From Limisphaerales bacterium (GTDB lineage Bacteria; Verrucomicrobiota; Verrucomicrobiia; Limisphaerales; DSYF01), in assembly GCA_046290825.1 (NCBI GenBank), contig JBKBTZ010000001.1:29364-93363 (forward strand): a stretch of DNA of 64,000 nt. The letters are read 5' to 3'. The notes beneath the pieces are model-generated. The model searched no databases, had not been told where the DNA came from, and worked only from the letters and a program-made list of their open reading frames with translations. Positions 2,364 to 47,578 of this stretch are shown one piece after another. Each line of letters opens with the position of its first letter. Position 1 is the first letter of the stretch. A program made the translations under genes and the position numbers.

Positions 2364-2508
2364 GGTTTGAGGCGGCGTGGAGAAAGGCGGGCCAAACCGC
2401 AAATGAGCCTCGCGCGGGGCTGTTGCGCTGTCAAATGCCTCCGGGTGTTGCGCCGGTGAGCAACCCCGGCTTGCCCCGTCCGCGAAGCGGCGCGTAACCT
2501 GCCCGCCC

Positions 2509-25625: not shown

Positions 25626-26477
25626 ATGGACTGGACCATCGTCACCCCCAGCCGCAACCAGCTTAAGTGGCTGCGGCTGTGCCGCGCCTCGGTTGCTGAC
25701 CAGGCCGGCGTCACCGTGCAGCATATTGTGCAGGATGCCGGCTCGACGGATGGCACGGTCGAATGGCTGCACCAACAACCCGGCATTGAGGCGCACATCG
25801 AGGCGGATGAGGGCATGTATGACGCGCTGAACCGCGGTTTTGCCCGGGCGACGGGCGATTTCGTGGCCTGGCTGAACTGCGACGAGCAATACCTGCCCGG
25901 CGTGCTCGCGCGCGTAGCCAAGTTTTTCCGGGCGCATGCTGGCGTGGACATGGTTTTTGGCGACATCATCGTGGTGGATGAATGCGGCGAATACCTCTGG
26001 CATCGCAAGGTGCAGGTGCCGCGCCTTTATCACACGCTGACCTGTCATCTTTCCACGCTTTCGTGCGCGATGTTCTTCCGGCGGCGGCTGGTTGAGGCCG
26101 ACAGGTTCCGCTTTGACACGTCCTACCGGATCGTGGGCGACGCGGAATGGATGACGCGGCTGCTGCGAGCCGGGGTGCGGATGGCGGCGCTGGGGGAGTT
26201 CACCTCCGTCTTCACGCAAACCGGACAGAACCTGAGCCGGGACGCGCGGGCGGCGGCAGAACAGGCCCGGCTGGCGGCGACGGCATCGCCGTGGGTGCGG
26301 TTGGCGCGGCCGCTTTGGATTCTGCACCACCGACTGGCCCGCTGGCGGGCGGGAGCCTACCGGCAAACGCCCTTTTCGTTTCAGCTCCACATGGCGGAAC
26401 CGGTGGGGAGCCGGGTGGCGCGACGGGTTGCCGTGCCGCGTTTTCGTCCGGTTGCCGGAAGGCCGGGTTGCCGCTAG
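25626..26477 (+). CDS. Family 2 glycosyltransferase
   Basis: Start at ATG 25626 (MDWTIVTPSRNQLKWLRLCRASV). QDAGSTDGT and WLNCDEQYLPG (DXD-like) are present. The 194-aa upstream extension was rejected. Confidence 0.8.
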   Translation: MDWTIVTPSRNQLKWLRLCRASVADQAGVTVQHIVQDAGSTDGTVEWLHQQPGIEAHIEADEGMYDALNRGFARATGDFVAWLNCDEQYLPGVLARVAKFFRAHAGVDMVFGDIIVVDECGEYLWHRKVQVPRLYHTLTCHLSTLSCAMFFRRRLVEADRFRFDTSYRIVGDAEWMTRLLRAGVRMAALGEFTSVFTQTGQNLSRDARAAAEQARLAATASPWVRLARPLWILHHRLARWRAGAYRQTPFSFQLHMAEPVGSRVARRVAVPRFRPVAGRPGCR

Positions 26478-26608
26478 AGTCCTCCGGTTCTAGGGAGCCG
26501 GGATCGTGTGCTGTTTTTCCATTTGGCATGGTCGCTGGCTGCGTTGCGAGGCGTGGCAGAGGAAACATCACGGTCGTATGCTCTTTTTCTGAATCCAATC
26601 CAACACAC

Positions 26609-29600: not shown

Positions 29601-30910
29601 TGGCGGAGGCCATCGAGGCCTTGGAAACCGGCGCCCCGCGATTTGCCAAATCCCCGTGGTCGAAAGTGGTAAAGCAGGGAGACGCACAAACCCTGCGCGT
29701 TGAGGCGATCGGCTGGCCCTTGCCGCAAATCCAGTGGCAGCACCAGGGCACCAACTTACCGGGGGCCACCGGCCCGCGGCTCTTCCTCACTAACATCACC
29801 ACCGCCATGGCGGGTGAATACCGCGCCATCGCCTGGAACTCACAGGGCAGCATCACCAGCGCCGTGGGCCGGCTCACCGTGCTCGTCACCAACATGCCGC
29901 CCGTGGTCATCACCCATCCCAAAGACCTCTCCCGCACCAATGGCGCGCGGGCGGTCTTTGGCGCGGGCGTTTCGAGTCTGACGCCCCTCGCCTACCAATG
30001 GCTGCATAACGGCGTCCCGCTTCCCAATGCCACCAACGTCACCGTTGTGCTGACCAACCTCGGCTCCGGGCACGCGGGTTTCTATTCACTCGTCGCCTCG
30101 AACGCGTTTGGGGTGGCCACCAGTTCTCCGGCCCTGTTGTTGGTGGAACCGCCCGGCGGTGCCGTGGCCCCCAGCATCACAATGCAGCCGACCAATCAGG
30201 CGGTCCTCGCGGGTGAAACCGCCGCGTTCGCCGTCACCGCCACCGGCACCACGCCGCTGGCCTACCAATGGTATTTCAACGCGACCAATCCGGTCGGCGG
30301 CAACGTCAATCCGCTGGTGCTGACCAATGTCCAGCCCGGCCAGGCGGGGGATTATCGCGTGGTCGTCGCCAACATTGCGGGCAGCGTGACGAGCGCGGTC
30401 GCCACGCTCTCGGTCGAGGTCGCGGCACCGGTCATCACCGCCGCGCCCACAAATCTCACGGTGGTGCAGGGCCAGTCCGCGCAGTTCACCGTGACCGCCA
30501 CCGGCTCGCTGCCGCTGGCGTATCAATGGTTCTTCAACGAGACCAACCTGCTTGCCGGGGCGACCGCCAGCACGCTTTCGCTCACCAACGTGCAACCGCC
30601 GCAGGTTGGCAGCTACGTCGTGCGCGTGACCAATTCGGTCGGTGCCATCACCAGCCCGCCCGCACTGTTGCTGATTGCCGGGATGCCCAACTACACCAAC
30701 GAGCCGCCCGGGCTGACCGTGGCGTGGCAGGCCCCGGATTTGGTTTTGACGCTCGCGCCCGACAACCGCGCGCGCACCATCCAGGTATCCACGAATCTGG
30801 TGGATTGGGAGGTGTTCACCAACGCCGGGCCGAGCGCTGCGTTTGTCACCGTCCCGGTCGCGGCCACCAATCTGCCGGGCCGGTTCTTCCGCGCCTTCAT
30901 CGTCCCCTGA
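26609..30910 (+). CDS. Giant secreted protein: CBM4_9-like N-terminus + GH123/DUF4091-like core + 4 Ig-like (I-set-like) repeats + C-terminal beta-sandwich-like module (paralog 1)
   Basis: ATG 26609 with signal peptide (LLICITAQLLFLSLAAGQ). NLLPNPSFEAGSGSAPTGW (CBM-like). YSQWIDEP with a D-E pair at 28889-28894. Four roughly 90-aa repeats each carry PL(A)YQW...LTN(V)...G.Y. The tail is STNLVDWEVFTN...RFFRAFIVP*. Confidence 0.7.
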   Translation: MNQKFKSTEGVLLICITAQLLFLSLAAGQNLLPNPSFEAGSGSAPTGWVLLGSGSWASNNAYGGDQSVLVRGVQGQFSYWANHSPAAQPGQAYLCRIRAQQSNNVSGYMIAGFSSVSYDFPRPGFLWSVWHSTTFPAWIPSAAGQPSFRFGLFDAVGGAWFDEVEMYPLRVHRKRVGNYHLGAGEFLHAGHYTNHVKFGLPGGNYTPYLHAANTTFNSFKWYLQNGQYVVFRHELPGTAFTSAGIRSFLQNYNQITNRSLRLEASTNGSAWILVGELEAAGTNQIAVPPALLPTATLYLRFTTTNNLQFGFTGYTLDANVEDTNTTGQGESYYLGEMVSGSNIWISELTATAEGHRASVAILNTNTEPAVFTVRARSTFSQTTRERRASATVNPGQTNTVSVIFPTTGFGDNDAVLVVEDGDGTVVLQSTFTFRGSIIAEDGYGETVVDAPECAVWWCDGTHRVGANRLAPGKTNVAASIVAARNEYEPLQIVFRPKTTLSNLTATLTDFVSVTNPSARIAATNVVLETVGYVPINELDPRDLLSVVGLHADPLEPVSSPLTAPAGTNLSFFVTVYVPREAEAGEYMANFEAQHASGNFSIPVRLRVLNFTLPGHSEQRNAAGLYEQGTWYGFNWATPEQRAQTWELNLLHFARHRISPYYPQSFARIQYTYHPVTDSFTYDFSAFDAAMDRYIEEYNFNSFRDLNPFAALPPIPGVPQYNAQKTAITPEYRRLYIKLMQPIFQHFRERGWMGIAYSQWIDEPTTNQTPLVQQGMDMIQEAAPDQPRLLASLYAPDPDLFGYIDEWVPNWDFGLQTQHIGPLQAAGDRVWYYVATVPKTPWPNNFVDQPAINPRVRQWYAEKQGFVGEDYWAVNWWGDNNPWLDPMARGGSASDGYFRLGNGDGMMIYPPVKSLPTNTAVVAPPVNSIRMANMRDGFEDREYFAHLKRLISNSIPILGPDHPSVIEAQAAIQDALAPLPWTPLNPFEASTLFAARQRVAEAIEALETGAPRFAKSPWSKVVKQGDAQTLRVEAIGWPLPQIQWQHQGTNLPGATGPRLFLTNITTAMAGEYRAIAWNSQGSITSAVGRLTVLVTNMPPVVITHPKDLSRTNGARAVFGAGVSSLTPLAYQWLHNGVPLPNATNVTVVLTNLGSGHAGFYSLVASNAFGVATSSPALLLVEPPGGAVAPSITMQPTNQAVLAGETAAFAVTATGTTPLAYQWYFNATNPVGGNVNPLVLTNVQPGQAGDYRVVVANIAGSVTSAVATLSVEVAAPVITAAPTNLTVVQGQSAQFTVTATGSLPLAYQWFFNETNLLAGATASTLSLTNVQPPQVGSYVVRVTNSVGAITSPPALLLIAGMPNYTNEPPGLTVAWQAPDLVLTLAPDNRARTIQVSTNLVDWEVFTNAGPSAAFVTVPVAATNLPGRFFRAFIVP

Positions 30911-30924
30911 ATCTGAAGTCACCC

Positions 30925-33900
30925 ATGCGGCCCACGAAACACACGAAACGACCCGAAATGGCTTGGGCCGGTAACGCCGCAGAGTTGTGCTCCCGAGGGG
31001 CGAACGTTGTTCCTCGAATCAGTTTCGCGCCCCGCACCAGGTGGGTTGCCCGAAGTTGGCAGGCCGTTCTCGCTTTTCTTGCGGTCGCCGGGTGGACGGC
31101 CTCTGTGTCCGCTCAAAATCTCGCGCCGAACCCGTCGTTCGAGGCGGGTGTCACCACTCCCGAGCCGTGGACGCCCGTGGGGGCGGGGGCGTGGGAAAAC
31201 TTTGGCCGGACGGGCAACCGCTGCGTTTCCATCCTGGGCGAGGCGGGGGTGACCCGCGGTTGGTCGGGGCCGCTTACCCTCGACGCGCAGCGCGGCTATT
31301 GGGTCCGGTTTTGGGCCAGCGCGTCCAACGCGCTCAGTGGTTATCTTTACGGCGGCCTGTCCACCGCAAGCCGGGATTTCCGCCGCGCCAGCCGCCGGTG
31401 GTCGGACTTCGCCTACGCCGCGTGGGTGCCGGCTGGCGAACCGCCGCAATTCCGAATGATGTCCTCGGGCACCATCGGACCGATTTATTTCGACGACGCG
31501 GAGGTGCTGCCTTTGGTGGAAGTCCACCGCCCCGTCGGGGATTACGAACTGGGCGAGGGGGAAAGCCTGCGCGCAGGCACCTATCGTTTCCAAGCTCCCT
31601 TCGCCTCGTTCGGCGGCAACTGCGCCCGGCCCTTGCACGCCGCCAACACCGCGTTCAATACCTACCGCTGGTATTTCAATCCCGGCTCCGTAGTCATCTA
31701 CCGCCACGAACTCGCCGGGCAGCCCTTCTCGAACGCGGTCGTGGGCTTCCAGCTACAGAATTACAACAACCTTAACAACACGACCCTCCTCCTCGAGGCG
31801 GGCACGGACGGGACCAACTGGCTCCCTGTCGGCTCCGTCGCGCAATACATCGCCGGCAATTTTCCCGTGCCTGCCGAACTGCTGCCCGCGCCGGTCGTTT
31901 TCATCCGCCTGCGCAGCACCAACGCCAGCCAGTTCTCGCTCGCCGGCTACTCGTTCACGGCGCAGGTGCCCGACACGGTCACCGACGCCACCGGCACCAC
32001 TCATTACTTTGGCCGGCTGCATCCCGGCGACGACGTGCGCGTGTTGGACGTGAGTCTCACCGCCACCGGACGGGTGGCCACGCTGGCCGTGCCCAATTTC
32101 ACCGCCAGTCCGCGCCCGTTCACCTGCGAGGCGGTCACGACACTGCTGGCCGTGGAACGCGCTCGCGTCGTTAGCATGACCGTGCCGCCCTTGGCCACCA
32201 ACCTCGTCCAGTTGCCGCTGCCCACCGCCGGTGCAGGGGACAACACCACCGTCCTGACCGTCCGCGACGCCGCCACCAACATTGTGTTCCAGCAGATTCA
32301 CCGCTTCACCGTGCAATTCCTCGATGATGACAGCTTTGGCGAGCGTTTGCCGTCGCCAGCGGAGTGCCCGGTCTGGACCTGCTCCGGCAATTACAAGGTG
32401 GGACGAAATCGCGGCCTGCCCGTGGGCACCACCAATGCCGTCCGGCTCGCTTTGGCCCGGAACGAATACGAACCCTTCCAACTGATCCTGCGCCCGCCCG
32501 CGACGCTCAGCAACGTCTGGGTGAGCGTCGGCAACTTCGTCTCCGTGACCAATCCCGCGGTCAGCTTCAGTGCCACCAACGTCACGATTGACCGCGTGGA
32601 CTACGTGAACGTCAGTGTCCCGGATCCCGGGAATTTCGCTGCCGCGTTGGGCGACCATCCCGACCCGCTGCCGCCGCTGACCGCGCCGTTCACCGCGCCG
32701 GGCGGCACGAACAGCCCGCTGTGGTTCACCGTGTATGCGCCGAAGGATGTGCCCGCCGGCGAATACGCCGCCACCCTCACGGTGCAGCACCACGACGGCA
32801 GCTTCACCGTGCCGCTGGTAGTCCGGGTGTTTGACTTCGCCCTCACCGACGTCAGCCACACACGCACGGCCTACGGGCTGATGCCGCTGGAGGACTGGCA
32901 CGGCCTGCAATGGGCCACGCCGGAGCAGGTCCGGCAGGTTTGGGACTTGTATCTCCGCAACATGGCGCGGCACCGGGCCAGCCCGTATTACCCGCAGCTT
33001 TATTCGGCCGTGCAATACACCTACCAGCCGGGCACGGACAGCTTCACCCACAACTTTGGCCCCTTCAGTGCCGCGATGGACGAATACCTCGAGGAATACC
33101 ACTTCAACAGCTTTCGCGACCTCAGCTTCTATTCCGGTTTCCCGCAGATTCCGGGTGTGCCCACATTCACCCCGGACGGGCTGACGATTCATCCCGAATA
33201 CTGGCGGCTCTATCCGAAACTGATGCAGCCGGTGTTTCAGCATTTCCGCGAGCGCGGTTGGATGGGCACCGCCTTTGCCCAGTGGATTGACGAGCCGGCC
33301 GCCGCCCAGATGCCGCTCGTTCGCCTGGGCATGGAACTGATTCAGAACACCGCGCCCGACCACGACACTCTGCTGGCCACCTTCTTCGGCCCCGTCGCCG
33401 AACTGTTCGATTTAGTCACGCTGTGGGTGCCGCACTGGGACTTCGATATGTATTTCGAGCACGTGGCACCTCGCCGGGCCGCCGGGGACGAGGTGTGGTA
33501 TTACGTTTGCACCATCCCGAAGGATCCCTGGCCCAACAGCTTCATTGACCAGGCCGGCGTCGCGCCCCGCCTGCGACAGTGGTATGCCGAGCTGTGGCAG
33601 TTGGATGGCGAAGATTATTGGGGGGCCAACCACTACATCGGCATCACCAACCCGTGGGTCCAGACCATGAGCCGGTTCGGCAACGCGACCAACGGCTACT
33701 ACAACCTCGGCCACGGCGACGGCTACGTGCTGTATCCGCCGGTCCGCGAGAAACCCACCAACACCGTCATCGTCGCCGGCCCCGTCAACTCCGTCCGCTT
33801 CGAGACCGTGCGCGATGGTTACGAGGACCGCGAATATTTCTGGCTGTTGCAACGGGCGCTGGTCGCCCGGGAGCCGGTCCTCGGCACGAATCATCCCGCC

Positions 33901-35310
33901 GTCGTCGAGGCCCGCGCCGCCTATGCCGAGGCCATGGGCCTGCTTCCGTGGCCGCCCATCCTGCCCCATGAACCGCACCGGCTGGCCGCCTCCCGGCTCC
34001 GCGTGGCCGAGGCCATCGAGGCGCTCGATGACGGCGCACCCTTTATTGCCAAGGACCCGCTGAACAAGGTCTGTCGGCCGGGCGAAAATCAGACGTTGCG
34101 CGTCGAGGCGGTCGGCTGGCCGTTGCCCTCGCTGCAATGGCAGCGCAACGGCACCAATCTCCCCGGCGCCACGGAACGGCGGCTCGTGCTGACCAGCCTC
34201 ACCGCCGCGCACACCGGCGACTACCGCGTCATCGCCAGCAACGCGCACGGCAGCGTCACCAGCGCCGTGGGCCGGCTAACCGTGCTCCTCACCAACGACC
34301 TCCCGCTGTTCGTCGCGCAGCCGAAATCGCTCCATCGGGGTTACGGCACGCGCGCCGTCTTCGGCGGCGGCGTGTCGAGCCTCACGCCGCTGACCTATCA
34401 ATGGCTGAAGAACGGCGCGCTGCTGTCCGGCGAGACCAACACCACGCTTGTGTTGACCAACCTCAACGACACGCACGCCGGGACCTACGCGCTCATCGCC
34501 AGCAACGCCAACGGCAGCCTGACCAGCGCGCCTGCCATCCTGACCGTTGCGGCTCCGCCCGGCTCCGTGCCGCCGCAGGTAATCGCGCCGCCCGTCAGCC
34601 AGACCGTCAACGCCGGCTCGAACGTGACGTTCACCGTCAGCGCGAGTGGCACGACCCCGCTGAACTACCAATGGCGTTTCCACGGCACGAATCTGCCGGG
34701 CGCTACCGCCACCAATCTCAGCTTCACGAACGTCCAGCCCTTCCGCGCCGGCCCTTACGACGTGGTCATTGGCAACGTCGCCGGCTGGGCCACCAGCGCC
34801 GTGGCCACGCTCACCGTGCAGACGTTCGCGCCCTATCTGACCCTGTCCCCGTCGAACCTGACCCTCGCCCAAAACCAGAACGCGCAATTCACCGCCGCGG
34901 CGGGCGGTTCGCCGCCGCTGGCGTTCCAGTGGTTTTTCAACGGCACCAACGCCCTGCCCGGCGCGACCGCCCCGAGCTTGTTGCTGACCAACGTCCAGCC
35001 CGCGCAAACGGGGAATTACGCCCTGCGCGTCACCAACCTTTACGGCGCGATCACCAGCACGCCCGCGCTGCTGCAACTCTCGGGCATGCCCGGCTACACC
35101 ACCGAGCCGCCCGGCATTACGGCGCTGCGGCAGGGCGGTTTCCAGCTTGGGCTGCTGCCGGACAACCGCGCCCGCACCGTGCTGGTTTCCACCAATCTTC
35201 AAGACTGGACCTGGTTCACCAACGTCCCGCCCTCGGCGGCGCAGGAGAATTTGCCCGTGCCCCTCACCAACGCCCCGCGCCGATTCTTCCGTGTCTTCGT
35301 CACGCCATGA
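30925..35310 (+). CDS. Giant secreted protein, tandem paralog 2 with the same architecture
   Basis: Collinear with paralog 1 throughout: QNLAPNPSFEAG, FAQWIDEP (D-E at 33289-33294), four Ig-like repeats, and the tail STNLQDWTWFTN...RFFRVFVTP*. Start at ATG 30925 (alternative 30958). Confidence 0.7.
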   Translation: MRPTKHTKRPEMAWAGNAAELCSRGANVVPRISFAPRTRWVARSWQAVLAFLAVAGWTASVSAQNLAPNPSFEAGVTTPEPWTPVGAGAWENFGRTGNRCVSILGEAGVTRGWSGPLTLDAQRGYWVRFWASASNALSGYLYGGLSTASRDFRRASRRWSDFAYAAWVPAGEPPQFRMMSSGTIGPIYFDDAEVLPLVEVHRPVGDYELGEGESLRAGTYRFQAPFASFGGNCARPLHAANTAFNTYRWYFNPGSVVIYRHELAGQPFSNAVVGFQLQNYNNLNNTTLLLEAGTDGTNWLPVGSVAQYIAGNFPVPAELLPAPVVFIRLRSTNASQFSLAGYSFTAQVPDTVTDATGTTHYFGRLHPGDDVRVLDVSLTATGRVATLAVPNFTASPRPFTCEAVTTLLAVERARVVSMTVPPLATNLVQLPLPTAGAGDNTTVLTVRDAATNIVFQQIHRFTVQFLDDDSFGERLPSPAECPVWTCSGNYKVGRNRGLPVGTTNAVRLALARNEYEPFQLILRPPATLSNVWVSVGNFVSVTNPAVSFSATNVTIDRVDYVNVSVPDPGNFAAALGDHPDPLPPLTAPFTAPGGTNSPLWFTVYAPKDVPAGEYAATLTVQHHDGSFTVPLVVRVFDFALTDVSHTRTAYGLMPLEDWHGLQWATPEQVRQVWDLYLRNMARHRASPYYPQLYSAVQYTYQPGTDSFTHNFGPFSAAMDEYLEEYHFNSFRDLSFYSGFPQIPGVPTFTPDGLTIHPEYWRLYPKLMQPVFQHFRERGWMGTAFAQWIDEPAAAQMPLVRLGMELIQNTAPDHDTLLATFFGPVAELFDLVTLWVPHWDFDMYFEHVAPRRAAGDEVWYYVCTIPKDPWPNSFIDQAGVAPRLRQWYAELWQLDGEDYWGANHYIGITNPWVQTMSRFGNATNGYYNLGHGDGYVLYPPVREKPTNTVIVAGPVNSVRFETVRDGYEDREYFWLLQRALVAREPVLGTNHPAVVEARAAYAEAMGLLPWPPILPHEPHRLAASRLRVAEAIEALDDGAPFIAKDPLNKVCRPGENQTLRVEAVGWPLPSLQWQRNGTNLPGATERRLVLTSLTAAHTGDYRVIASNAHGSVTSAVGRLTVLLTNDLPLFVAQPKSLHRGYGTRAVFGGGVSSLTPLTYQWLKNGALLSGETNTTLVLTNLNDTHAGTYALIASNANGSLTSAPAILTVAAPPGSVPPQVIAPPVSQTVNAGSNVTFTVSASGTTPLNYQWRFHGTNLPGATATNLSFTNVQPFRAGPYDVVIGNVAGWATSAVATLTVQTFAPYLTLSPSNLTLAQNQNAQFTAAAGGSPPLAFQWFFNGTNALPGATAPSLLLTNVQPAQTGNYALRVTNLYGAITSTPALLQLSGMPGYTTEPPGITALRQGGFQLGLLPDNRARTVLVSTNLQDWTWFTNVPPSAAQENLPVPLTNAPRRFFRVFVTP

Positions 35311-38999: not shown

Positions 39000-39147
39000 T
39001 TCCCCGGCCTCGTGGCCTGACCCCGCTTGAAGTGTGCCCGCAAACCGGGCCGGGCGTTGGCCATGAGGGCTTCCTGCAACTCCTGAAACCAACGGGCCTG
39101 CCGTTGCCCGACACCGCGCCTGCGGTGTGCAAACCGGCATTCAACGC

Positions 39148-39843
39148 ATGAAAACCGTCCATCCGGTGGCGTCCCGTCGCGGGGCGTTCACCTTGATTGA
39201 GCTGCTCGTGGTCATCGCCATCCTCGCGATCCTCGCGGCGCTGCTGCTGCCCGCGCTGGCCCGCGCGAAGACCAAGGGCAAGGCCGTCGCCTGCGTCGGC
39301 CAGTTGCGCCAACTCGGCCTCGCGCTGCGCATGTATGCCGATGACGACCCGCGTGGCTGGCTGCCGGGCAGTTCCCACAGTGGAGCGGCCACCCACTCCT
39401 GGGTTTACACCCTGGCGCCGTATCTCGGTCAGGTGGACCGCGTCCGCATCTGTCCCGCCGATCCGAAGGGTGCCGAGCGCCTCGCCAATCGCGGCACCAG
39501 TTACATGCTGAATGAATACCTCGTAGTGGATGCCCTCGATGAATTCGGGCTGCCCCTGCCGGGCGATTCCGCGTGGCGCAAGCTCGACGCGCTCCCCCGC
39601 CCTGCCGAGGTCTTCGTCACCTTTGAGACCTCCGACCGCGCGGGCACGGGCACCGGACAGGACCACACCCATTCCCGCAACTGGACCGCCGGGTGGAACA
39701 GCGTCTTGACCGACATCCAGCCGGACCGCCACGGCAACGGTGCCAATTACCTTTTTGCCGACGGCCACGTGCAATTCGTGCGGGCCGTCACCCTCCGCCA
39801 ACGCCTCGAAAGCGGGGACAATTTCGCCAAACCCCGGCGGTGA
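39148..39843 (+). CDS. Prepilin-type N-terminal cleavage/methylation domain protein with H-X9-DG motif (DUF1559-like)
   Basis: [28 protein letters not shown] (G|FTLIE prepilin motif). The C-terminal [14 protein letters not shown] equals H-X9-DG. Confidence 0.85.
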
Positions 39844-39903
39844 GTGCCGCCGGTTTTCCAGAAACAAAAGCAAGAACCAGAAAACACCAGAGAACCACAA
39901 ACC

Positions 39904-40626
39904 ATGAAACCGCAATACCTCCCCCGCGCCGCCGTGTCCGGGCTGGCCCTCGTCCTGGCCGCCGCCCTGCCGGCCGCCGCGCTGACCCCGATCTACTCGG
40001 GGCATACCGACATCGCGATCGGCTACAACCCCACGCTGAACCTGTGGGACCCGCACGTTCACGACGAGGAAAACGACATGGAATACGAGCCGGATGACGC
40101 CCTCATCGTCATCGGGCTGGACGCGCTCACGACGGTGCCCGCCGGGCCACAGTGGAGTTTTCTGGGCAGCCCCGGCAGCGCGACGTGGATTCTGACCAGC
40201 ACCGAGGTGCCCACGCTGCCCTACCTGGGGCTCAGCACCGAAGGCATCAGTCCGGGCACGTTCACGGGCGACACCCTTTCGTTCCGTCTCAAGGCCATCA
40301 GCGGGCCGGGGCACTTCGCCCTGTTTGACCTCGATTCGTTTGGCGACCCGATTGTGCTGATGAACTCGGGCGACGGCATCACGCTGGCGGACACGGCCAT
40401 CCTGCCCATCGGCAGCCACCTGCACTACCACTGGGCCTTCAGCGAGGCGGGCGATTACACGCTCACCTTCGAGGCCTTCGGCAATTCCGCGCTGCACGGC
40501 CTCACTTCGAGCGGCGACGTGGACTTCCTGTTCCGGGTGGACCCGATTCCGGAGCCTTCGACCTTCGCGCTGGTGACGCTGGGGCTGGCCGCCCTGGCGC
40601 TGCAACGGCGCAAGTCCCGCACTTGA
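39904..40626 (+). CDS. Choice-of-anchor-M-like (TIGR03769-like) surface protein with PEP-CTERM sorting signal
   Basis: Signal peptide. GHTDIAIGY..., WILTSTEVPTLPYLGLSTEGI and GSHLHYHWAFSEAGDYTLTFEA blocks. C-terminus IPEPSTFALVTLGLAALALQRRKSRT (PEP motif, TM segment, basic tail). Confidence 0.7.
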   Translation: MKPQYLPRAAVSGLALVLAAALPAAALTPIYSGHTDIAIGYNPTLNLWDPHVHDEENDMEYEPDDALIVIGLDALTTVPAGPQWSFLGSPGSATWILTSTEVPTLPYLGLSTEGISPGTFTGDTLSFRLKAISGPGHFALFDLDSFGDPIVLMNSGDGITLADTAILPIGSHLHYHWAFSEAGDYTLTFEAFGNSALHGLTSSGDVDFLFRVDPIPEPSTFALVTLGLAALALQRRKSRT

Positions 40627-40740
40627 GGGTGGGGAACGGGAGGCGCGCGGAGCGTGCTTGAGCTTGCGCCGCCGCGCGCCTCCCCACGCAGACCACCCGC
40701 AAAGCAGCTTTGCCCACGAAACTCACGAAAGGACACGAAA

Positions 40741-41823
40741 ATGAACCCCGATCGAATCAGGCACATGCCCGGTATATCTGGCGCGCTGTGGCTCACCGCC
40801 CTGCTCGCGTGGCCGACAGCGGGCCAGGTGTTGACGCTCACCAACCAGCACATGGACATCCGGTTCCAATATCATCCCGCCGCCAGCGGCACCAACCGGT
40901 TCAGCCTCGTGCTCGGCGTGGACCCCGGCCCCGTCCTCCTGAGCAATTACCAGTTCACCATCACCGCCCACACCAACGCCCAGCGCATCATTCCCGCAAA
41001 CCCGAACTTTGCCTTCCTCGGCCCGGCGGGCGCGCCGGTGTGGATTCTGCCGCAGACGCAGGACCCGCTCCGCCCCTATCTCGGCGTTTCGGCGGAGGAC
41101 ATTTCGCCCGCCGACTTCGACAACCCGCTGCGCCTCGAACTCGTCGGCGTGGAAGGACCGGGCAACTTCTTCGTCTATTCCGTCAGCGGTGCCGGCAATC
41201 CGCCAGACGTGAAAATGGTCTTCACCAACGGCGTCGTCTCGCCGGCCCAATTCTTCTCCACGGAATTCGTCGGCAGCCACAGCCACAACAACTGGGCCTT
41301 CAGCACCAACGGCCTTTACCGCGTCACCTTTCGCGCCGTCGGCTCACCCGCCGGCACCGGCACGAATCTCGTCGGGCGCGACGTGGCCTTCGCCTTTCAA
41401 CTGCTTCCCCTCCGTCCGTGGGAATCCTGGGTGAGCACCCAGTGGCCGCCCGCCACGCCCGGCGCCATTGCCGGTCCCGCTGCCGACCCGGATGGCGACG
41501 GCCTGGTCAACGCGGTGGAATACGCCCTCGGCCTGGATCCGAACGCCCCTTCGCACAGCGGTCGGCCGTTCGCGGGCCTGGTCAACGAAGGCGGCCAGAC
41601 CTATGGCACCCTCACCTACACCCGCGTCAAGGCCGCCACAGACGTGACCTATGAACCGGTCGTGCGCGCCAGCCTCACGGATGAAAACGGGACACTCCTG
41701 ACCAACGTGGTGAGCGTCGTGGACCTGGGGCCGACCGAGCGGGTGACGGTGCGCGACGCGCCGCCGGTTTCCGCGTCCAGCGCGCGGTTTTATCAGCTTC
41801 GCGTCCGGCTGAATTATCCCTGA
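40741..41823 (+). CDS. Choice-of-anchor-M-like surface protein, paralog, with DPDGDG calcium-binding-like motif
   Basis: NQHMDIRFQY, VWILPQTQDPLRPYLGVSAEDI, GSHSHNNWAFSTNGLYRVTFRAVG, and DPDGDGLVNAVEYALGLDPNAP. The last 158 nt are duplicated at 44773-44930. Confidence 0.7.
   Translation: MNPDRIRHMPGISGALWLTALLAWPTAGQVLTLTNQHMDIRFQYHPAASGTNRFSLVLGVDPGPVLLSNYQFTITAHTNAQRIIPANPNFAFLGPAGAPVWILPQTQDPLRPYLGVSAEDISPADFDNPLRLELVGVEGPGNFFVYSVSGAGNPPDVKMVFTNGVVSPAQFFSTEFVGSHSHNNWAFSTNGLYRVTFRAVGSPAGTGTNLVGRDVAFAFQLLPLRPWESWVSTQWPPATPGAIAGPAADPDGDGLVNAVEYALGLDPNAPSHSGRPFAGLVNEGGQTYGTLTYTRVKAATDVTYEPVVRASLTDENGTLLTNVVSVVDLGPTERVTVRDAPPVSASSARFYQLRVRLNYP
41666..41823 (+). repeat. 158-bp direct repeat, copy 1 (3' end of the intact surface-protein gene)
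   Basis: Hand-aligned to 44773-44930: same length, with 3 mismatches at 41718/44825, 41776/44883 and 41817/44924. Confidence 0.9.
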
Positions 41824-42074
41824 TCTTCCCCAGTTTCCGTCCTTGTCGCGGAAGTGATCAACATACCCAGTTCCACATTGAGAGCTCTTGATATGCGGAG
41901 TAGCGTGTCCAACGTTGGGTTTCGCAGATCACGCTCCATCAAACTGATCATCGCCTGGGATAATCCTGCCTTTTGAGCAAGCTCATTCATTGAAATCCCC
42001 TGCCTTTCGCGCTCGCTTCGCAGCAGTTTTACAACCCGGCTGCAAATTTTTTCTCTAAGGGCATCTTCCCGCAC
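41814..42074 (-). CDS. XRE-family helix-turn-helix transcriptional regulator
   Basis: ERERQGISMNELAQKAGLSQAMISLMERDLRNPTLDTLLRISRAL (HTH_3/XRE pattern). GTG start at 42072-42074. The stop TAA (41814-41816) lies inside repeat copy 1. Confidence 0.8.
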   Translation of the reverse strand: MREDALREKICSRVVKLLRSERERQGISMNELAQKAGLSQAMISLMERDLRNPTLDTLLRISRALNVELGMLITSATRTETGEDQG

Positions 42075-42134
42075 CCCTGAGCATTAAGCGAAATGTTGCT
42101 TGACACGGCATATTACAATAGTTATTTGGGCGAT

Positions 42135-43892
42135 ATGACTATAGTTAACCCTGGTTGGGTCGTCGCGGCTTTGGCGCTAAATTTGCTCGCGGGGCTGTTA
42201 TCCATCGGCGGGGTCGCTCTTGGTCAAACTGTGCCGCCGTTTCCTGGCAATTGGGAACCCGGCACAAATTCCGGTTCAAGTGCTTTATCTTTTCCGACAC
42301 TGAAATCCAGTCGTCCGGATTCTTATCCAACAAACGCAACGCTCAAATGGCAGATTCTACTGCCCGGTGGAGACGGACACAATTTTGCTGCTTTGGCGCT
42401 TGCTCCGGACGGAACGCTTTTTTGCGCGAACCTGACGTCCACCTCAGGCGGCGGCGAAAATTCAAACTGGGCCAACAGTCTTTGGGCAATCGACCCAGGA
42501 CTTGTTGACCCCGCCGCTTCTGAATATCCATCCCCCGACATGTTCGCAAAATGGGCAGTCTATTTTGGAGGGTTTGGTGCCGGCACAACTCCTGCGGTTA
42601 CGTTGACTGGAACGGTCGTCACTTCCCTGGGTTTGGGTTGCATTGGTGCCCTTGATGTTGAGGGGGGCGAATTGGTCTGGTCAGTCAGCTTTGTTGAGGG
42701 CTTGATGGGAGGAATGATTTGGGCCGAACCTTCCGCCGACGACAATTCGGACACAGTTTTCTTTCCAATTGGCAGTCGTATTTTTGCAGTAACCAATGCT
42801 CCCGGATTCGTCTCATTCCATCACGAAACGAACTACACGCCATTTCTTTCATGGGTGGACACCTACGCGCTCACAAATGTTGCTGTCAGGTGGACTTTCA
42901 CGTTTCCCAAGACGAACCCAATTGCCCGCGTCTCCTGGGACAACATGGAGTTTTACCAGAGTTCCCTGACCTTGGGTAAATCAGGACTGCTGTATGTCAA
43001 CTCGCAGGGCGGGCAAATTTTCGCAATAGACACTACCAACGGAAATCTGGCTTGGATCACGGTTACGAATGGAAGCCTGGCTTCTGCCCCAATCGAAGGC
43101 ACCGATGGCACAATCTACTATTCGTGCGGTGGCAGCCTCTTGGCTGTGAATCCATCGGCGACAACGAGCAACGGTGTTATGGGATTCAAATGGCGCCTGA
43201 CCGGGGCGACCAACAGTCTTGGTCAAGTTGTCGAATATTTCGAAAATGCCCCGGTTCTCATGGCAGGCGGAATTCTTCTTGTTGATTCCGAAGGGTTCGA
43301 AGGAGCGGAGGCGGTTGGCTGGGTAAGTGCCTTGGATTCCCGAACCGGCGAAAGAATCTGGAAAAATGAAATTTTCCGTGATTCATCAGTGGTTCAGCCG
43401 GATGGCAAGCGATGCGCAATAGCGGTGGCGTCCGATGGCCAGATATATGTCACCACCCCAACTGGGGCTTTTTATTCCTTTGGGCCAGACGGAAAGACCA
43501 ACTGGGTGTATGAAACGGGGGGAGTTCTGGGGACTCCGCTTATTGGCCCGGACGGAACAGTCTTTGTGAGCACCGCCTACGGGCCGAGGTATGTTTACGC
43601 ATTCGACGGGCGGACGGGTCCCGATTGTTCGGTCTGGCCGCAGCACCGTCGGAACACGCGCAAAACCTCAGCTATGCCGCAGCTTCATCTGGGTCTTCCG
43701 ATGTTCTCGTCGCACGGGGCGACGATGAACATATCCGGGGTGTCCAATCTTCCGGTATGCCTGTGTGCAACTCAGGATTTCCTCACATGGACCAATCTCG
43801 GACAATTGGTGCTGACAAACGGGACCGGGGCCTTTTCTGACCGGCATGCCACCAACTTGGATGCCAGATTCTACTTTGCAAAACCACAATGA
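42135..43892 (+). CDS. PQQ-like beta-propeller repeat protein, secreted, with shared C-terminal module
   Basis: Signal/TM segment (VVAALALNLLAGLLSIGGVALGQ). Propeller repeats (DGTIYYSCGGSLLAV, DGQIYVTTPTGAFYSF, DGTVFVSTAYGPRYVYAF). A WPQHRRNTRKTS motif, and the tail ...FLTWTNLG...ARFYFAKPQ*. Start may be 42135 or 42093. Confidence 0.7.
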   Translation: MTIVNPGWVVAALALNLLAGLLSIGGVALGQTVPPFPGNWEPGTNSGSSALSFPTLKSSRPDSYPTNATLKWQILLPGGDGHNFAALALAPDGTLFCANLTSTSGGGENSNWANSLWAIDPGLVDPAASEYPSPDMFAKWAVYFGGFGAGTTPAVTLTGTVVTSLGLGCIGALDVEGGELVWSVSFVEGLMGGMIWAEPSADDNSDTVFFPIGSRIFAVTNAPGFVSFHHETNYTPFLSWVDTYALTNVAVRWTFTFPKTNPIARVSWDNMEFYQSSLTLGKSGLLYVNSQGGQIFAIDTTNGNLAWITVTNGSLASAPIEGTDGTIYYSCGGSLLAVNPSATTSNGVMGFKWRLTGATNSLGQVVEYFENAPVLMAGGILLVDSEGFEGAEAVGWVSALDSRTGERIWKNEIFRDSSVVQPDGKRCAIAVASDGQIYVTTPTGAFYSFGPDGKTNWVYETGGVLGTPLIGPDGTVFVSTAYGPRYVYAFDGRTGPDCSVWPQHRRNTRKTSAMPQLHLGLPMFSSHGATMNISGVSNLPVCLCATQDFLTWTNLGQLVLTNGTGAFSDRHATNLDARFYFAKPQ

Positions 43893-43911
43893 AGCCCTTA
43901 ACTGGCGCAAA

Positions 43912-44703
43912 ATGAAAACTGTGGCCCGCAGACTTGTTACAGCGCCACGCCTTGGCTTCACCCTGATTGAACTGCTTGTGGTGATAGGCATTATCGGAAT
44001 CCTCGCCGCGATGCTTCTGCCGGCACTTTCGGCGGCGAAAGACCGAGCGCGTCGGCAGTTGGCCAAACTTCAGATTGGTGAACTAGTCGTTGCCATCAAT
44101 CAATACGAGTCGATTTACAGTCGTCCGCCGGTTTCGAGCAACGCGCTGTCTTCTGCATCTGCCTTAGGGACAGACTTGACCTTTGGGACAACTTTGCCCA
44201 CCCCTTCAGGAACGCAGCTTCCGGTTTTCGGCCCAGGATACACGGCGAGCAACGCAGAAATCGTTGCGATCCTTGCGGACCTTGAAACTTATGGTGATGG
44301 AACACCCACCCTCAACGCAGGCCACGCCCGCAACCCACAGCAACACAAGCTGCTAAATCCAAAATTCGTGAACAGGAGTGAAGCTGGCGGCGTGGGATCA
44401 GATGGCGTGTATCGGGATCCTTGGGGAAACCCATACATCATCACAGTCGATCTGAATTTTGACCGGCGATGCAAAGATATTTTTTACCGGCAAAGGACAG
44501 TTTCACAGCAGAGTGCCGGGAATGCAGCAGGCTACAATGGCTTGGTGAACGGCCCGTCAAATCCAGGGAGCCCCGATAGTGATCATTTCGAGTCAAACGG
44601 CGGGGTCATGGTCTGGTCTGCTGGGCCGGACAAAATGGTGGATCCTGCGAGCAAAGCAAATTCGGGGGCCAACAAGGATAATATTCTCAGTTGGCGTGAC
44701 TAA
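43912..44703 (+). CDS. Type II secretion GspG-like pseudopilin (prepilin-type N-terminal methylation domain)
   Basis: [32 protein letters not shown], then DPWGNPYII (GspG-like block) and VWSAGPDKM. Confidence 0.8.
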   Translation: MKTVARRLVTAPRLGFTLIELLVVIGIIGILAAMLLPALSAAKDRARRQLAKLQIGELVVAINQYESIYSRPPVSSNALSSASALGTDLTFGTTLPTPSGTQLPVFGPGYTASNAEIVAILADLETYGDGTPTLNAGHARNPQQHKLLNPKFVNRSEAGGVGSDGVYRDPWGNPYIITVDLNFDRRCKDIFYRQRTVSQQSAGNAAGYNGLVNGPSNPGSPDSDHFESNGGVMVWSAGPDKMVDPASKANSGANKDNILSWRD

Positions 44704-44771
44704 CCTGCTCGTTCCCTCCACCCTATTCTTTCCCTTCTGCCGCCATCGGCCACGCGAGATGCCCCGTCTTC

Positions 44772-44930
44772 TGCGCCAGCCTCACGGATGAAAACGGGAC
44801 ACTCCTGACCAACGTGGTGAGCGTGGTGGACCTGGGGCCGACCGAGCGGGTGACGGTGCGCGACGCGCCGCCGGTTTCCGCGGCCAGCGCGCGGTTTTAT
44901 CAGCTTCGCGTCCGGCTGAATTACCCCTGA
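44772..44930 (+). pseudogene. Orphan 3' fragment of a choice-of-anchor-M-like gene (direct repeat copy 2)
   Basis: It encodes ...ASLTDENGTLLTNVVSVVDLGPTERVTVRDAPPVSAASARFYQLRVRLNYP* in frame with a stop at 44928-44930, but has no start codon or upstream homology. The two copies diverge sharply upstream of 41666/44773. Confidence 0.7.
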
Positions 44931-45090
44931 AATGGCTGGATTCGCGTTTTTGCGGCGGTTCGGCAAGGGATTTGCTAAATTGCGAACCGCCCGCCAAACC
45001 GGGCACCACCGCATGTTTTTGCGACAATAACTCGGACAAATTCCGGGCGCGCGGATCTCCGTTTCCCCGCGCCCACCCAACTGAGCCGCC

Positions 45091-45870
45091 GTGAAAATCA
45101 TTCCTCCCGCCGCGCCCGTCATCCTCGAGATCAACCACCTCCGCGTGGAATACACCACCCGCGAGCTGGGCGGCGCCACCAAGGTCGCCGTCAAGGACCT
45201 CTCGCTCGAGGTCCACGCCGGCGAGGTCTTCGGCTTCCTCGGCCCCAACGGCGCCGGCAAGACCTCGACCATGAACGTCCTGCTCGGCTTCACGCAGCCG
45301 ACGGCGGGCCGCGTCTGCCTGTTCGGCGTGAATGTCGCCGAGACCATCGCGCGCCAGCGGCTCGGCTACCTGCCCGAACTGACCTACTACTACAAGTTTC
45401 TGACCGCCGAGGAACTGCTCCGCTTTTACGCCCGCATCTTCGGCATTCCGAAGGCCGAACGGGAGAAGCGCATTGACGAGGTAATCCAGCTCGTCGAACT
45501 CGAGCACGCCCGGAAGCGTCTCATCAAAACCTACTCGAAGGGCATGCAGCAGCGCGTCGGCCTGGCCCAGGCGCTCATCAACAATCCCGACCTGCTCATC
45601 CTCGACGAGCCGACCAGCGGCCTGGATCCGCTCGGGCGCATGAAGGTCCGCAACATCATCCAGCGCCTGAAAAACGAGGGCAAAACCGTCTTCTTCTCCT
45701 CCCACGAACTCGGCGAGGTCGAGACCGTCTGTGACCGCGTCGCCATCCTGCATCAGGGCGAACTCAAGGTGCTGGGCCGCGTGGACGACCTCGCCCGCGA
45801 GCACAAGTGCAGCCTCGAACAACTGTTCCTCCGCGTCGTGGGTTACGAACCCGAAGCTGTTGCCGCATGA
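45091..45870 (+). CDS. ABC transporter ATP-binding protein (ABC-2 subfamily partner)
   Basis: GTG start. Walker A GPNGAGKTS, signature YSKGMQQR, Walker B LLILDEPTSGLD, and SSHEL (H-loop). Confidence 0.9.
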   Translation: MKIIPPAAPVILEINHLRVEYTTRELGGATKVAVKDLSLEVHAGEVFGFLGPNGAGKTSTMNVLLGFTQPTAGRVCLFGVNVAETIARQRLGYLPELTYYYKFLTAEELLRFYARIFGIPKAEREKRIDEVIQLVELEHARKRLIKTYSKGMQQRVGLAQALINNPDLLILDEPTSGLDPLGRMKVRNIIQRLKNEGKTVFFSSHELGEVETVCDRVAILHQGELKVLGRVDDLAREHKCSLEQLFLRVVGYEPEAVAA

Positions 45871-46643
45871 AAAACTCCCTCGCCGTCGCCCAGGTCGTCG
45901 TGCTGGAAATGATCCGGCGCAAGGACTTCTACGTCCTGTTCGCCCTCACCGCGCTCATCACCGCGCTGATGGGGTCGGTCACGTTCTTCGACGACCCGAA
46001 GATCGCGCGCTATCTCAAGGAGGTCTGCCTGGCGTTGATCTGGGTCAGCGCACTGTTCATCGGCATCGGCACCGCGGCGCGGCAGTTCCCCGCCGAGCGC
46101 GAGAGCCGGACGATTTTCCCGCTGATGGCCAAGCCCATCACGCGGGGCCAGGTGTTGCTGGGCAAGTTTCTCGGCTGCTGGCTCGCCACCGCCGCCGGGC
46201 TGCTGGTGTTTTACCTGTTCTTCGGCGGCGTGGTGGCCTCCAAGGAACACGCGCTTTACCCGGTGAATTATTTCCAAGCCTGGTCACTGCATTGCGCGAT
46301 GATGGCCGTGGTGGTGGCGATCACGCTGCTGGGCTCGCTCCTGCTCAGTTCCGTGGCCGCGAACCTGACGATGACCACGGTGCTGACCCTCGGCATCCTC
46401 TTCGTTGGACGGCACCTGAACAAGGTCGCGTTGCAGGTGGGAGACCCCCTTGGGACCGTCATTTACGGCATTTACTACACGATCCCGCACCTTGAACTGT
46501 TCGATGTGCGCGACCTGATCGTCCACAACTGGCCGGCCATCCCGTGGGGCATCTGGGCCATCGCGTTGGCGTATGCCGGCGTGTATGCCGCGCTGGTGCT
46601 CACCGGCGCCTGGCTGGTTCTCCGCAAGAAGGCGCTGCAATGA
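45867..46643 (+). CDS. ABC-2 family transporter permease
   Basis: ATG overlaps the upstream stop (ATGA). Six hydrophobic segments, and an AERESRTIFPLMAKPITRGQVLLGKFLG block typical of ABC2_membrane-type permeases. Confidence 0.8.
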   Translation: MKNSLAVAQVVVLEMIRRKDFYVLFALTALITALMGSVTFFDDPKIARYLKEVCLALIWVSALFIGIGTAARQFPAERESRTIFPLMAKPITRGQVLLGKFLGCWLATAAGLLVFYLFFGGVVASKEHALYPVNYFQAWSLHCAMMAVVVAITLLGSLLLSSVAANLTMTTVLTLGILFVGRHLNKVALQVGDPLGTVIYGIYYTIPHLELFDVRDLIVHNWPAIPWGIWAIALAYAGVYAALVLTGAWLVLRKKALQ

Positions 46644-47578
46644 AAGGCCGCTGGACAGGGGCACTGTGCGCGCTCGCGCTGCTGGTCGCCGGGGCCGGCC
46701 TGGCCGCGCGGCTGGACTGCTGGTTTCTCCAGTGGCCCGGCAACCGCGCCAAGACCTGGAACCCGCTGGATGTCTTCGTGGGGCAGGGCCAACGCCTGTT
46801 TGGCGGCCACTTCTACCGCAAGGCCGATGTCTATTTCCACCAGGGGTTTTATCCTTCGATCTTCGACAACAACGCGGCCTTCCAGACCGAGCACATGGCG
46901 GCGGACGCGGACCTGGCGCACGACCGCAATGCGGGCGACGAGCATGATTTCCTGGGCGGGCCGCGCGACATCATCGAGCGGTTCAGCCGCCACTTCTTTC
47001 CCTCGCAACACACCCATCTGGGCGAGGGGCAGTGCGCCCACGACCACGACCACGATCATGACCATGCCGCGCCCGGGCCGGACGGCAACCAGGTGCGCGA
47101 GATTCTGCCGTGGCTGCGCATCGCCGCCACGCTGGATCCCGAAATGCCGGAAACCTACACCGTAGCCGCCTACTGGCTGCGCGAGCGCATGGGCAAGGAC
47201 CGCGAGGCGGAACAGTTTCTGCGGGAGGGGCTGAAACACCTGCCGAATCATCCGCAACTGCTCTTCGAACTGGGCCGCATCTACCGCGAGAGCCGCAACG
47301 ATCCCGAACGTGCCCGCAACATCTGGCGCCACGCTTCGCGCGTCAGCCCCGGCTGGAAGGAGAATGCCACCCCGCAGGAGCAGTTCATCCTGCTGCAGAT
47401 CGAAAGCCGCCTGGCCAAACTGGCGGAGGACCAGCACGACCTCCCCGCCGCCATCACGCACTGGCAGAACGTGGCGCGGTTCAGCCCTGTCCCGGAGGAA
47501 ATCCAGAAGCATATTGCCCAACTGCGCCAGCGCATGGCCACCGGCACGAACGCGGTTCCGTTCTATCTGCAACCGTGA
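46640..47578 (+). CDS. Membrane-anchored protein with HDHDHDHDH tract and TPR-like C-terminal half
   Basis: ATG overlaps the upstream stop (ATGA). N-terminal TM segment (ALCALALLVAGAGLAA). A His/Asp repeat lies at nt 47039-47065, and TPR-like helices follow (YTVAAYWLRE..., LLFELGRIYRE...). Confidence 0.6.
   Translation: MKGRWTGALCALALLVAGAGLAARLDCWFLQWPGNRAKTWNPLDVFVGQGQRLFGGHFYRKADVYFHQGFYPSIFDNNAAFQTEHMAADADLAHDRNAGDEHDFLGGPRDIIERFSRHFFPSQHTHLGEGQCAHDHDHDHDHAAPGPDGNQVREILPWLRIAATLDPEMPETYTVAAYWLRERMGKDREAEQFLREGLKHLPNHPQLLFELGRIYRESRNDPERARNIWRHASRVSPGWKENATPQEQFILLQIESRLAKLAEDQHDLPAAITHWQNVARFSPVPEEIQKHIAQLRQRMATGTNAVPFYLQP

Follow-up and report, generated by a model that had tools for sequence, protein, structure and literature searches.

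In a Limisphaerales bacterium of the phylum Verrucomicrobiota, a 64,000-nucleotide stretch of the genome (GenBank assembly GCA_046290825.1, contig JBKBTZ010000001.1, positions 29,364 to 93,363), hereafter the window, contains an AT-richer islet of three genes lodged between a choice-of-anchor-M surface-protein gene, here called cAM2, and an ABC-transporter operon. Each side of the islet is bounded by a direct repeat that duplicates the 3' end of cAM2, hereafter the tail (Table 1). Copy 1 provides the last 52 codons and the stop of cAM2, so that this gene is intact, while copy 2 lies at the far end next to the native downstream DNA. The islet is a small non-autonomous one, bounded by a duplicated gene end, and is of a known kind in a little-studied phylum. 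With somewhat better than even confidence, it can be regarded as a cassette of three genes, non-autonomous and gained by horizontal transfer, whose insertion, looping-out and spread all proceed by recombination in the tail repeats and the flanks.

An earlier note on this DNA, made from the sequence alone, had described two near-identical 158-bp copies with three differing sites (synonymous, Ser/Ala and synonymous) and had stated that similarity stops upstream of both. Pairwise alignment of 41600-41900 with 44707-45007 bears this out. There are exactly three mismatches, namely C/G at 41718/44825 (GTC/GTG, synonymous), T/G at 41776/44883 (TCC Ser/GCC Ala) and T/C at 41817/44924 (TAT/TAC, synonymous). 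The right edge of the repeat coincides with the TGA stop of cAM2, and 5' of the repeat similarity falls to 6 of 10 bases; because these six bases still match, the repeat finder reports 168 bp at 96% identity. The two copies are 98% identical to each other and have a host-like GC content of 0.67. The note had also suggested looking for additional copies of the tail in the rest of the genome; within the part searched, the 64-kb window, and within the fetched loci, no further copy of the 158-bp DNA or of the 52-residue peptide is present, and on this ground the idea that the tail is a common C-terminal domain of other genes was rejected. Each copy carries a terminator-like hairpin with TTTTAT after it (41771-41787 and 44878-44894; CCGCG[T/G]CCAGCGCGCGG TTTTATCAGC), which falls within the last 50 nt of the cAM2 coding sequence and includes the Ser/Ala site at 41776. 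Terminator-like sites in the region do not exceed the shuffled expectation in number, and no promoter-like sites were found there.

The base composition of the islet is foreign to the host. Its GC content is 0.535 vs. 0.653 for the rest of the window, which places it 5.8 standard deviations under the mean of all other 2949-bp windows (z = -5.8), whose minimum is 0.568. GC content at third codon positions (GC3) is 0.52-0.55 in the three islet genes and 0.82-0.89 in six flanking genes. The GC and codon-usage profile that the earlier note had called for thus shows the compositional shift to be real, although the 73% GC given there for the flank was too high, the flank being at 65-67%. Contigs that carry the best homologue of the islet pseudopilin have a GC content of 0.54-0.56.

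Table 1. Features at the cAM2 locus, in window coordinates
Feature	Coordinates	Strand	Details
DUF1559/H-X9-DG prepilin	39127-39843		Upstream gene
Choice-of-anchor-M protein with PEP-CTERM anchor	39844-40626		Upstream gene
cAM2, choice-of-anchor-M surface-protein gene	40654-41823	+	NCBIfam NF038134, E=4e-30; start likely near 40738-40765
Direct repeat copy 1	41666-41823	+	158 bp; functional cAM2 3' end; left part lineage-specific, right part (after 41734) common with the islet tract
Identity tract vs. L001	41735-45985		4251 bp, 0 mismatches; L002 has one, at 41826
XRE-family HTH regulator	41814-42074	-	86 aa; Pfam HTH_3, E=6e-16
AT-richer islet	41824-44772		2949 bp, GC 0.535; missing from L004, L036, L037 and L014
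XRE/propeller divergent intergenic region	42075-42134		Partly conserved in L040 (75% identity)
PQQ-like beta-propeller protein, secreted or membrane-anchored	42093-43892	+	Pfam PQQ_2, E=1e-16; N-terminal hydrophobic segment
GspG-like prepilin-type pseudopilin	43912-44703	+	263 aa; N_methyl and TIGR01710 matches
Right-end spacer of islet	44704-44772		69 bp, pseudopilin stop to copy 2; contiguous with the single repeat in L034
Direct repeat copy 2	44773-44930	+	158 bp; orphan 52-codon tail with stop
Native downstream operon	44931-47578	+	160-bp intergenic region, ABC ATPase (45091-45870), ABC-2 permease (to 46643), TPR protein (to 47578)

Profile searches of the islet proteins (Pfam, NCBIfam, PHROGs) agree with the three genes previously read from the letters, an XRE regulator, a divergently transcribed PQQ-propeller secreted protein and a GspG-like pseudopilin; only HTH_3, PQQ_2 and N_methyl/T2SSG models are matched. 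The XRE gene does end within repeat copy 1, as the earlier note had it: copy 1 encodes the last base of codon 84, codons 85 and 86 and the TAA stop at 41814-41816. Homologues of this protein in an exhaustive protein search are 84-92 aa long, so that the gene is full length, and show 57-62% identity over residues 1-80; one relative, P0275, is 87% identical. An XRE from a cluster approximately 61% identical to that of the islet is encoded close to a PD-(D/E)XK nuclease and a TrwB-like coupling protein in another contig (L041, 2355-6814, Logan SRR28842990_213808), which hints at an association of this XRE subfamily with conjugative or mobile elements. The region between the divergent genes is presumed to contain a promoter/operator. 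The propeller protein, whose start is probably at 42135 (MTIVNPGW...), is an orphan, as a search of 5.8 billion proteins returns only the protein itself at 100%, the next matches reaching at most 33% identity over about one third of the query. The pseudopilin, with a probable true start at 43912, has more than 5800 homologues (best non-self identity 54-59%), located in type II secretion or pilus systems. The cargo may consist of a regulator-controlled secreted propeller protein and a pseudopilin, perhaps tied to type II secretion or pilus systems. As for the flanking genes, cAM2 has a 100% protein match annotated as 'choice-of-anchor M domain-containing protein [Limisphaerales bacterium]' (P0153), and the names borne by identical proteins assign the organism to uncultured Limisphaerales. 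When the ABC ATPase and the cAM2 protein (361 aa) were looked up as exact sequences, no record was returned.

The islet encodes no recombinase. None of the 39 gene-like open reading frames (ORFs) of the window scanned against Pfam is an integrase, transposase or recombinase, and a recombinase is likewise missing from the gene table of the L001 contig, one of the filled relatives described below. Thirty of these ORFs either belong to housekeeping or envelope functions (among them dnaE, glycosyltransferases, Wzy and ScpA) or have no Pfam match. No terminal inverted repeats of the islet occur among the inverted pairs found, no tRNA or tmRNA gene was detected, and no Rfam family passes the threshold. 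The earlier note's statement that integrase, transposase and terminal inverted repeats are all missing therefore holds for the islet and extends to the whole window. Nothing in the phage collection matches the islet DNA, and the only plasmid match is one of 68 bp, at the level of chance. IMG/VR yielded nothing for the propeller protein, for the conserved intergenic motif or for a tail 38-mer. In none of the phage, plasmid and IMG/VR collections was a relative of the islet with an integrase found. The locus also lacks the marks of a transposon or insertion sequence, there being no transposase, no terminal inverted repeat and a duplication of 158 bp rather than a short one.

Several public assemblies contain the same structure, including the NCBI metagenome-assembled genome (MAG) contig, three Joint Genome Institute (JGI) contigs and Logan contigs from at least 10 runs. 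Both junctions are assembled through in at least four independent contigs, the NCBI MAG (100 kb) and JGI contigs of 32.5 kb (L001), 38.8 kb and 6.2 kb (L002), with L001 and L002 coming from two samples. The Logan contigs of nine runs hold the islet and break inside the repeats (L003), as is expected of a de Bruijn assembler. Because the filled structure has been recovered in several independent assemblies, it is not a mis-assembly, and the artefact about which the earlier note had been concerned is disfavored. That note had also proposed a search for empty sites in relatives, and these exist. In L004, L036 and L037 (cAM2 83% identical, six contigs) a single tail is followed by 160 bp and then by the ABC ATPase, permease and TPR genes, and the single tail of L004 aligns with both window copies. 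L014 (cAM2 51% identical) is empty as well and has the same gene order. Two empty outgroups and the foreign composition of the islet make the filled state the derived one, and the islet therefore splits a conserved operon; the interruption suspected earlier is seen directly in the outgroups, where cAM2 runs straight into the ABC operon. Secondary deletion as the origin of the empty site in L004 is unlikely, given that L014 is also empty and that the islet is compositionally foreign. An origin of copy 2 as the remnant of a second paralogous gene was rejected because cAM2 occurs just once ahead of the ABC operon in each of the two outgroups and because no similarity is found upstream of copy 2. 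In a 68%-identical relative (L038, JGI Ga0502764_0008658, 2402-5305) the place of the ABC operon after cAM2 is taken by genes for an unknown protein of 196 aa, a FUR regulator and a DUF3299 protein; the region 3' of the cAM2 stop is thus variable in other lineages too.

Lineages have recently exchanged the islet. L001 and L002 belong to a single lineage, whose identity to the window is 90-91% over 32-40.8 kb and 85-95% past 47 kb. Between these regions lies the identity tract of Table 1, in which about 330 mismatches would be expected and none is observed. To its left, the 962 bp at 40773-41734 hold 75-76 mismatches to L001 and L002 (7.8%); to its right there are eight mismatches in 45986-46352 and ordinary divergence further on. 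The tract runs from the right part of copy 1 through the islet, copy 2 and the ABC ATPase gene into the start of the permease gene, the ABC genes having host-like GC3. Because it includes native genes, a block larger than the islet must have been exchanged recently between lineages approximately 10% apart. The pattern of mismatches places one crossover of this exchange inside the tail, in copy 1, and the other in the ABC permease gene. Copy 1 of L001 and L002 retains four lineage-specific alleles (41677, 41712, 41726 and 41734), two of them common to the empty-site relative, and the sequence of copy 2 is the same in the window, L001 and L002. The locus therefore displays both a cross-lineage identity tract reaching into flanking core DNA and atypical GC, as does an islet spread by flank-mediated homologous recombination. 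Import from a relative by homologous recombination had been offered in the earlier note as an alternative, and it is this alternative that the 4251-bp tract at 100% identity, in a lineage at about 90% elsewhere, and its left end in copy 1 support. A second mismatch-free stretch with L001 begins after 46352 and extends up to 46565, after which ordinary divergence resumes; comparison with L001 over 45986-46900 suggests that the ABC permease and TPR genes are a mosaic of more than one recombination event.

A second form of the islet is found on a 502-bp contig (L040, GCA_900118445.1), which carries the XRE relative P0275 and is collinear with window positions 41665-42166, the end of the contig coinciding with the repeat boundary. 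Identity to the window is 81% in the XRE gene and 75% both in the intergenic region and at the start of the propeller gene. In the tail, the right 97 bp are 93% identical to copy 2 and the left 61 bp are 100% identical. Islet and tail join at the same nucleotide in both, and in both the XRE stop lies in the tail, as a TAG overlapping the cAM2 stop in L040 and as a TAA two codons further in the window. The divergence of the L040 islet is about five times that of its adjoining tail. By this comparison there are at least two islet variants, about 20% apart, with a history decoupled from that of the tail beside them. It appears that the tail's right part moves together with the islet, and in L040 too a breakpoint lies inside the tail. 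The earlier proposal that copy 1 had travelled with the insert consequently stands for part of that copy, given that the XRE gene is closed within the tail in both variants and that the right part of the L040 tail has diverged. Derived changes in copy 1 and in the L040 tail are mostly GC to AT. As new mutations are AT-biased in bacteria generally, such drift in the element-borne tail does not discriminate between explanations, and it was not used as evidence.

A third arrangement is found in L034, a 1225-bp Logan contig (SRR15359034), in which 44301-44772 (the pseudopilin 3' end and spacer) is followed by one 158-bp repeat and then by 41824-42418 (the XRE gene and the propeller start). Its islet parts are 100% identical to the window. 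The repeat is of copy-2 type at 41677 and of L001-copy-1 type at every later variable site, which are the alleles expected if copy 2 of an L001-type chromosome had recombined with its copy 1 at 41678-41711. From this junction, L034 has roughly even odds of representing an excised circle or a tandem array rather than a chimeric path through a low-coverage assembly; thin coverage is suggested because the ends of the contig lie in unique islet sequence.

Crossovers have been placed within the tail at 41678-41711 (L034), near 41727 (L040), after 41734 (L001) and at 41719-41775 (copy 1/copy 2 of the window). Each placement rests on few sites, and not all are compatible with one core. Because the breakpoints fall at several places within 158 bp, homologous recombination is favored over site-specific recombination. 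The three differences between copy 1 and copy 2 fit a single reciprocal crossover between 41718 and 41776, with the polarity given by the C at 41718, which is native (common to the L001 native segment), and by the G at 41776 and C at 41817 of copy 2, which match the empty-site outgroup.

These observations suggest a scheme in which the functional unit would be the islet plus one tail copy (3107 bp), the tail acting as a portable homology arm. For insertion, a circle bearing the tail would undergo one reciprocal crossover of the Campbell type with the tail on the chromosome, leaving cAM2 intact and displacing the native tail downstream. The predicted product of such a single crossover has a copy 1 composed of native left and incoming right parts, and a copy 2 composed of incoming left and native right parts. 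In the reverse crossover, between the repeats, the cassette would loop out, leaving an L034-type junction and an empty site. Spread between lineages is seen in the tract common to the window and L001, where the whole block has moved by double crossovers, in the tail on one side and in the ABC genes downstream on the other. All of these steps would most simply be carried out by the host homologous recombination machinery, presumably with RecA, because the cassette encodes no recombinase. A more far-reaching version, in which the 3107-bp unit is a self-contained, recombinase-free mobile cassette that cycles between circular and integrated forms by host homologous recombination alone, its AT-rich lineage diversifying (two or more variants, which differ by about 20%) and its arm being made uniform with the host gene again and again, is unlikely.

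Several points weigh against the cassette scheme. The circle or tandem junction comes from a single Logan contig in a seemingly low-coverage sample, where a de Bruijn chimera across the repeat is possible, and the assemblies of nine other samples break off at the repeat (L003). The L040 contig, at just 502 bp, shows no host background, and half of all random three-site patterns would fit the single-crossover model. The scheme offers no explanation for how AT-rich DNA first gained a GC-rich, host-like tail, and no donor of the islet was found among 5.8 billion proteins or in the phage, plasmid and IMG/VR collections. An integrase acting in trans may lie outside the 64 kb of the genome that were scanned. 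Furthermore, a 3.1-kb circle has no replication or transfer function, so that its movement from cell to cell would depend on transformation, transduction or a similar process.

The earlier note had considered the locus to be the footprint of an integrative element that targets the 3' end of a gene and supplies a replacement end, with attL and attR at its borders. Insertion at the gene end and the replacement end are both upheld, but a reading of the repeats as attL and attR of a site-specific element is not demonstrated, in view of the missing cognate integrase, the variable inferred crossovers and the 98% identity of the copies, closer than the 93% of icd and icdC at e14. The note's further suggestion of a decayed or trans-mobilised element is a live rival, though not the best-supported reading. 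In its fullest form this rival would be an element resembling a cis-mobilizable element (CIME) or a satellite, with the repeats as att sites of an e14-like site-specific element at the cAM2 3' end, and with an integrase either provided in trans or lost by internal deletion. It is possible but distinctly doubtful. The architecture is nearly that of e14 at icd, and the definition fits, namely that att sites persist although the genes for integration and transfer have gone (PMC5704250). A repressor-like XRE gene in a terminal position is typical of integrative elements, and the L041 relative near a TrwB-like coupling protein and PD-(D/E)XK nuclease is in keeping with this. The two islet variants join the tail at the same junction nucleotide and are both still AT-rich despite about 20% divergence, and L034 may represent an attP-like junction. 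What tells against such an element is that no integrase occurs in the islet, the window or the L001 contig, that no integrase-bearing relative was found in the phage, plasmid and IMG/VR collections, and that the inferred crossover points vary between events. In addition, the transfer into the L001 lineage runs more than 1 kb into the native ABC genes, which is flank-mediated homologous recombination and not site-specific integration.

A further rival is a one-off illegitimate insertion: at the cAM2 stop, template switching or the repair of a break would have taken up a foreign fragment, the 158 bp being duplicated in situ, followed only by vertical and flank-mediated transfer, with no circle and with passive repeats. 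The 98% identity and host-like GC of the copies, as if both came from the host gene, would fit this, as would the weak microhomology (6 of 10 bases) at the right junction, the flank-mediated transfer already demonstrated and the possibility that the L034 junction is an assembly chimera. It is nevertheless quite improbable. A target duplication of 158 bp is far longer than those produced by known bacterial insertion mechanisms. Moreover, the roughly fivefold greater divergence of the L040 islet over its tail, with a breakpoint in the tail, requires recombination within the repeat, and the alleles of L034 are exactly those of a repeat-by-repeat crossover. An assembly artefact, whether the duplication and insertion or the mosaic tract arose by mis-joining of co-occurring metagenome strains, has very little probability. 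All of the sequences are metagenome assemblies, and short repeats are classic points of breakage and mis-joining, as the breaks in L003 illustrate. Against this, the same two junctions recur across different samples and pipelines in the independent contigs listed above, and the lineage-specific alleles of L001 and L002 lie only 90 bp from the left end of the islet. A recombining cassette whose tail serves as its homology arm remains the favored account, at the level of confidence stated at the outset.

Elsewhere in the window, two giant adjacent paralogous ORFs (26147-30910 and 30268-35310) have GH123 catalytic and Ig-like domains according to the L001 gene table. Across 26147-35310 the pair has in common blocks 71-77% identical at a constant offset of 4403 bp, together with 84-nt Ig-type repeat units, and the 5' part of the first ORF (about 27-29 kb) is of lower GC (0.57). 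A weaker second GC dip (0.563) occurs at 1001-2000, around and upstream of a glutathione peroxidase gene (1554-2099, GC3 0.77).

Mobile DNA in the Verrucomicrobiota is almost unstudied, and small recombinase-free 'islets' have mostly been dismissed as decayed remnants. For this locus, public metagenomes hold four states: empty, filled in two host backgrounds about 10% apart, occupied at the same nucleotide by a diverged cassette, and a candidate circle junction. They raise the question of whether an accessory cassette can integrate and excise with nothing but a duplicated gene tail as its site.

Among known systems, Campbell-type integration of a circle with short chromosomal homology, as in suicide and integrative plasmids, proceeds by a single crossover, gives a homology-insert-homology product, is reversible and requires only host RecA. 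The islet has the same homology-insert-homology product, with reciprocal hybrid copies. Such integration is known mainly as a laboratory tool or for plasmids, whereas here the circle of a natural 3-kb cassette is represented by one contig. Flank-mediated transfer of genomic islands between related strains by homologous recombination is also a known route. The identical tract at this locus resembles it in reaching core genes on one side, and on the other side it ends in the conserved tail; this route accounts for spread and not for the 158-bp duplication. CIMEs are derived from integrative and conjugative elements (ICEs) or integrative and mobilizable elements (IMEs) of Firmicutes, retain their att sites and no longer carry genes for integration or transfer (PMC5704250). 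The islet likewise carries cargo only, with no integration or transfer genes. It differs in phylum and in target gene, and also in that the att sites of CIMEs are recognised by the integrase of a related ICE or IME, whereas no such element or integrase was found in the 64-kb window, the L001 contig or the phage, plasmid and IMG/VR collections. Because membership among the CIMEs needs a cognate integrase-bearing element, the islet is filed here as a Campbell-type, CIME-like cassette and not as a demonstrated member of either group.

In architecture the nearest likeness is to the cryptic prophage e14, and to phage 21, at icd of E. coli K-12, where an element likewise sits at the 3' end of a coding gene that is kept intact by a duplicated end (165 bp there, 158 bp here). 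In MG1655 e14 contains the final 165 bp of icd, and at its other end stands icdC, a copy of the same length with 12 differences (93% identity, vs. three in 158 bp, or 98%, here); in both systems the copy that was displaced forms an orphan tail, complete with a stop, beside native downstream DNA. Excision of e14 recombines the icd 3' end and icdC copies and yields a chimeric gene (PMC13626634). In size and content the two differ, e14 being 15.2 kb with intE and xisE and the islet 2.9 kb with neither, and the crossover of e14 is fixed and site-specific whereas the inferred positions vary at cAM2. By interrupting a conserved surface-protein and ABC-transporter operon while leaving the upstream gene unharmed, the islet has nonetheless arrived at the same solution as e14 at icd.

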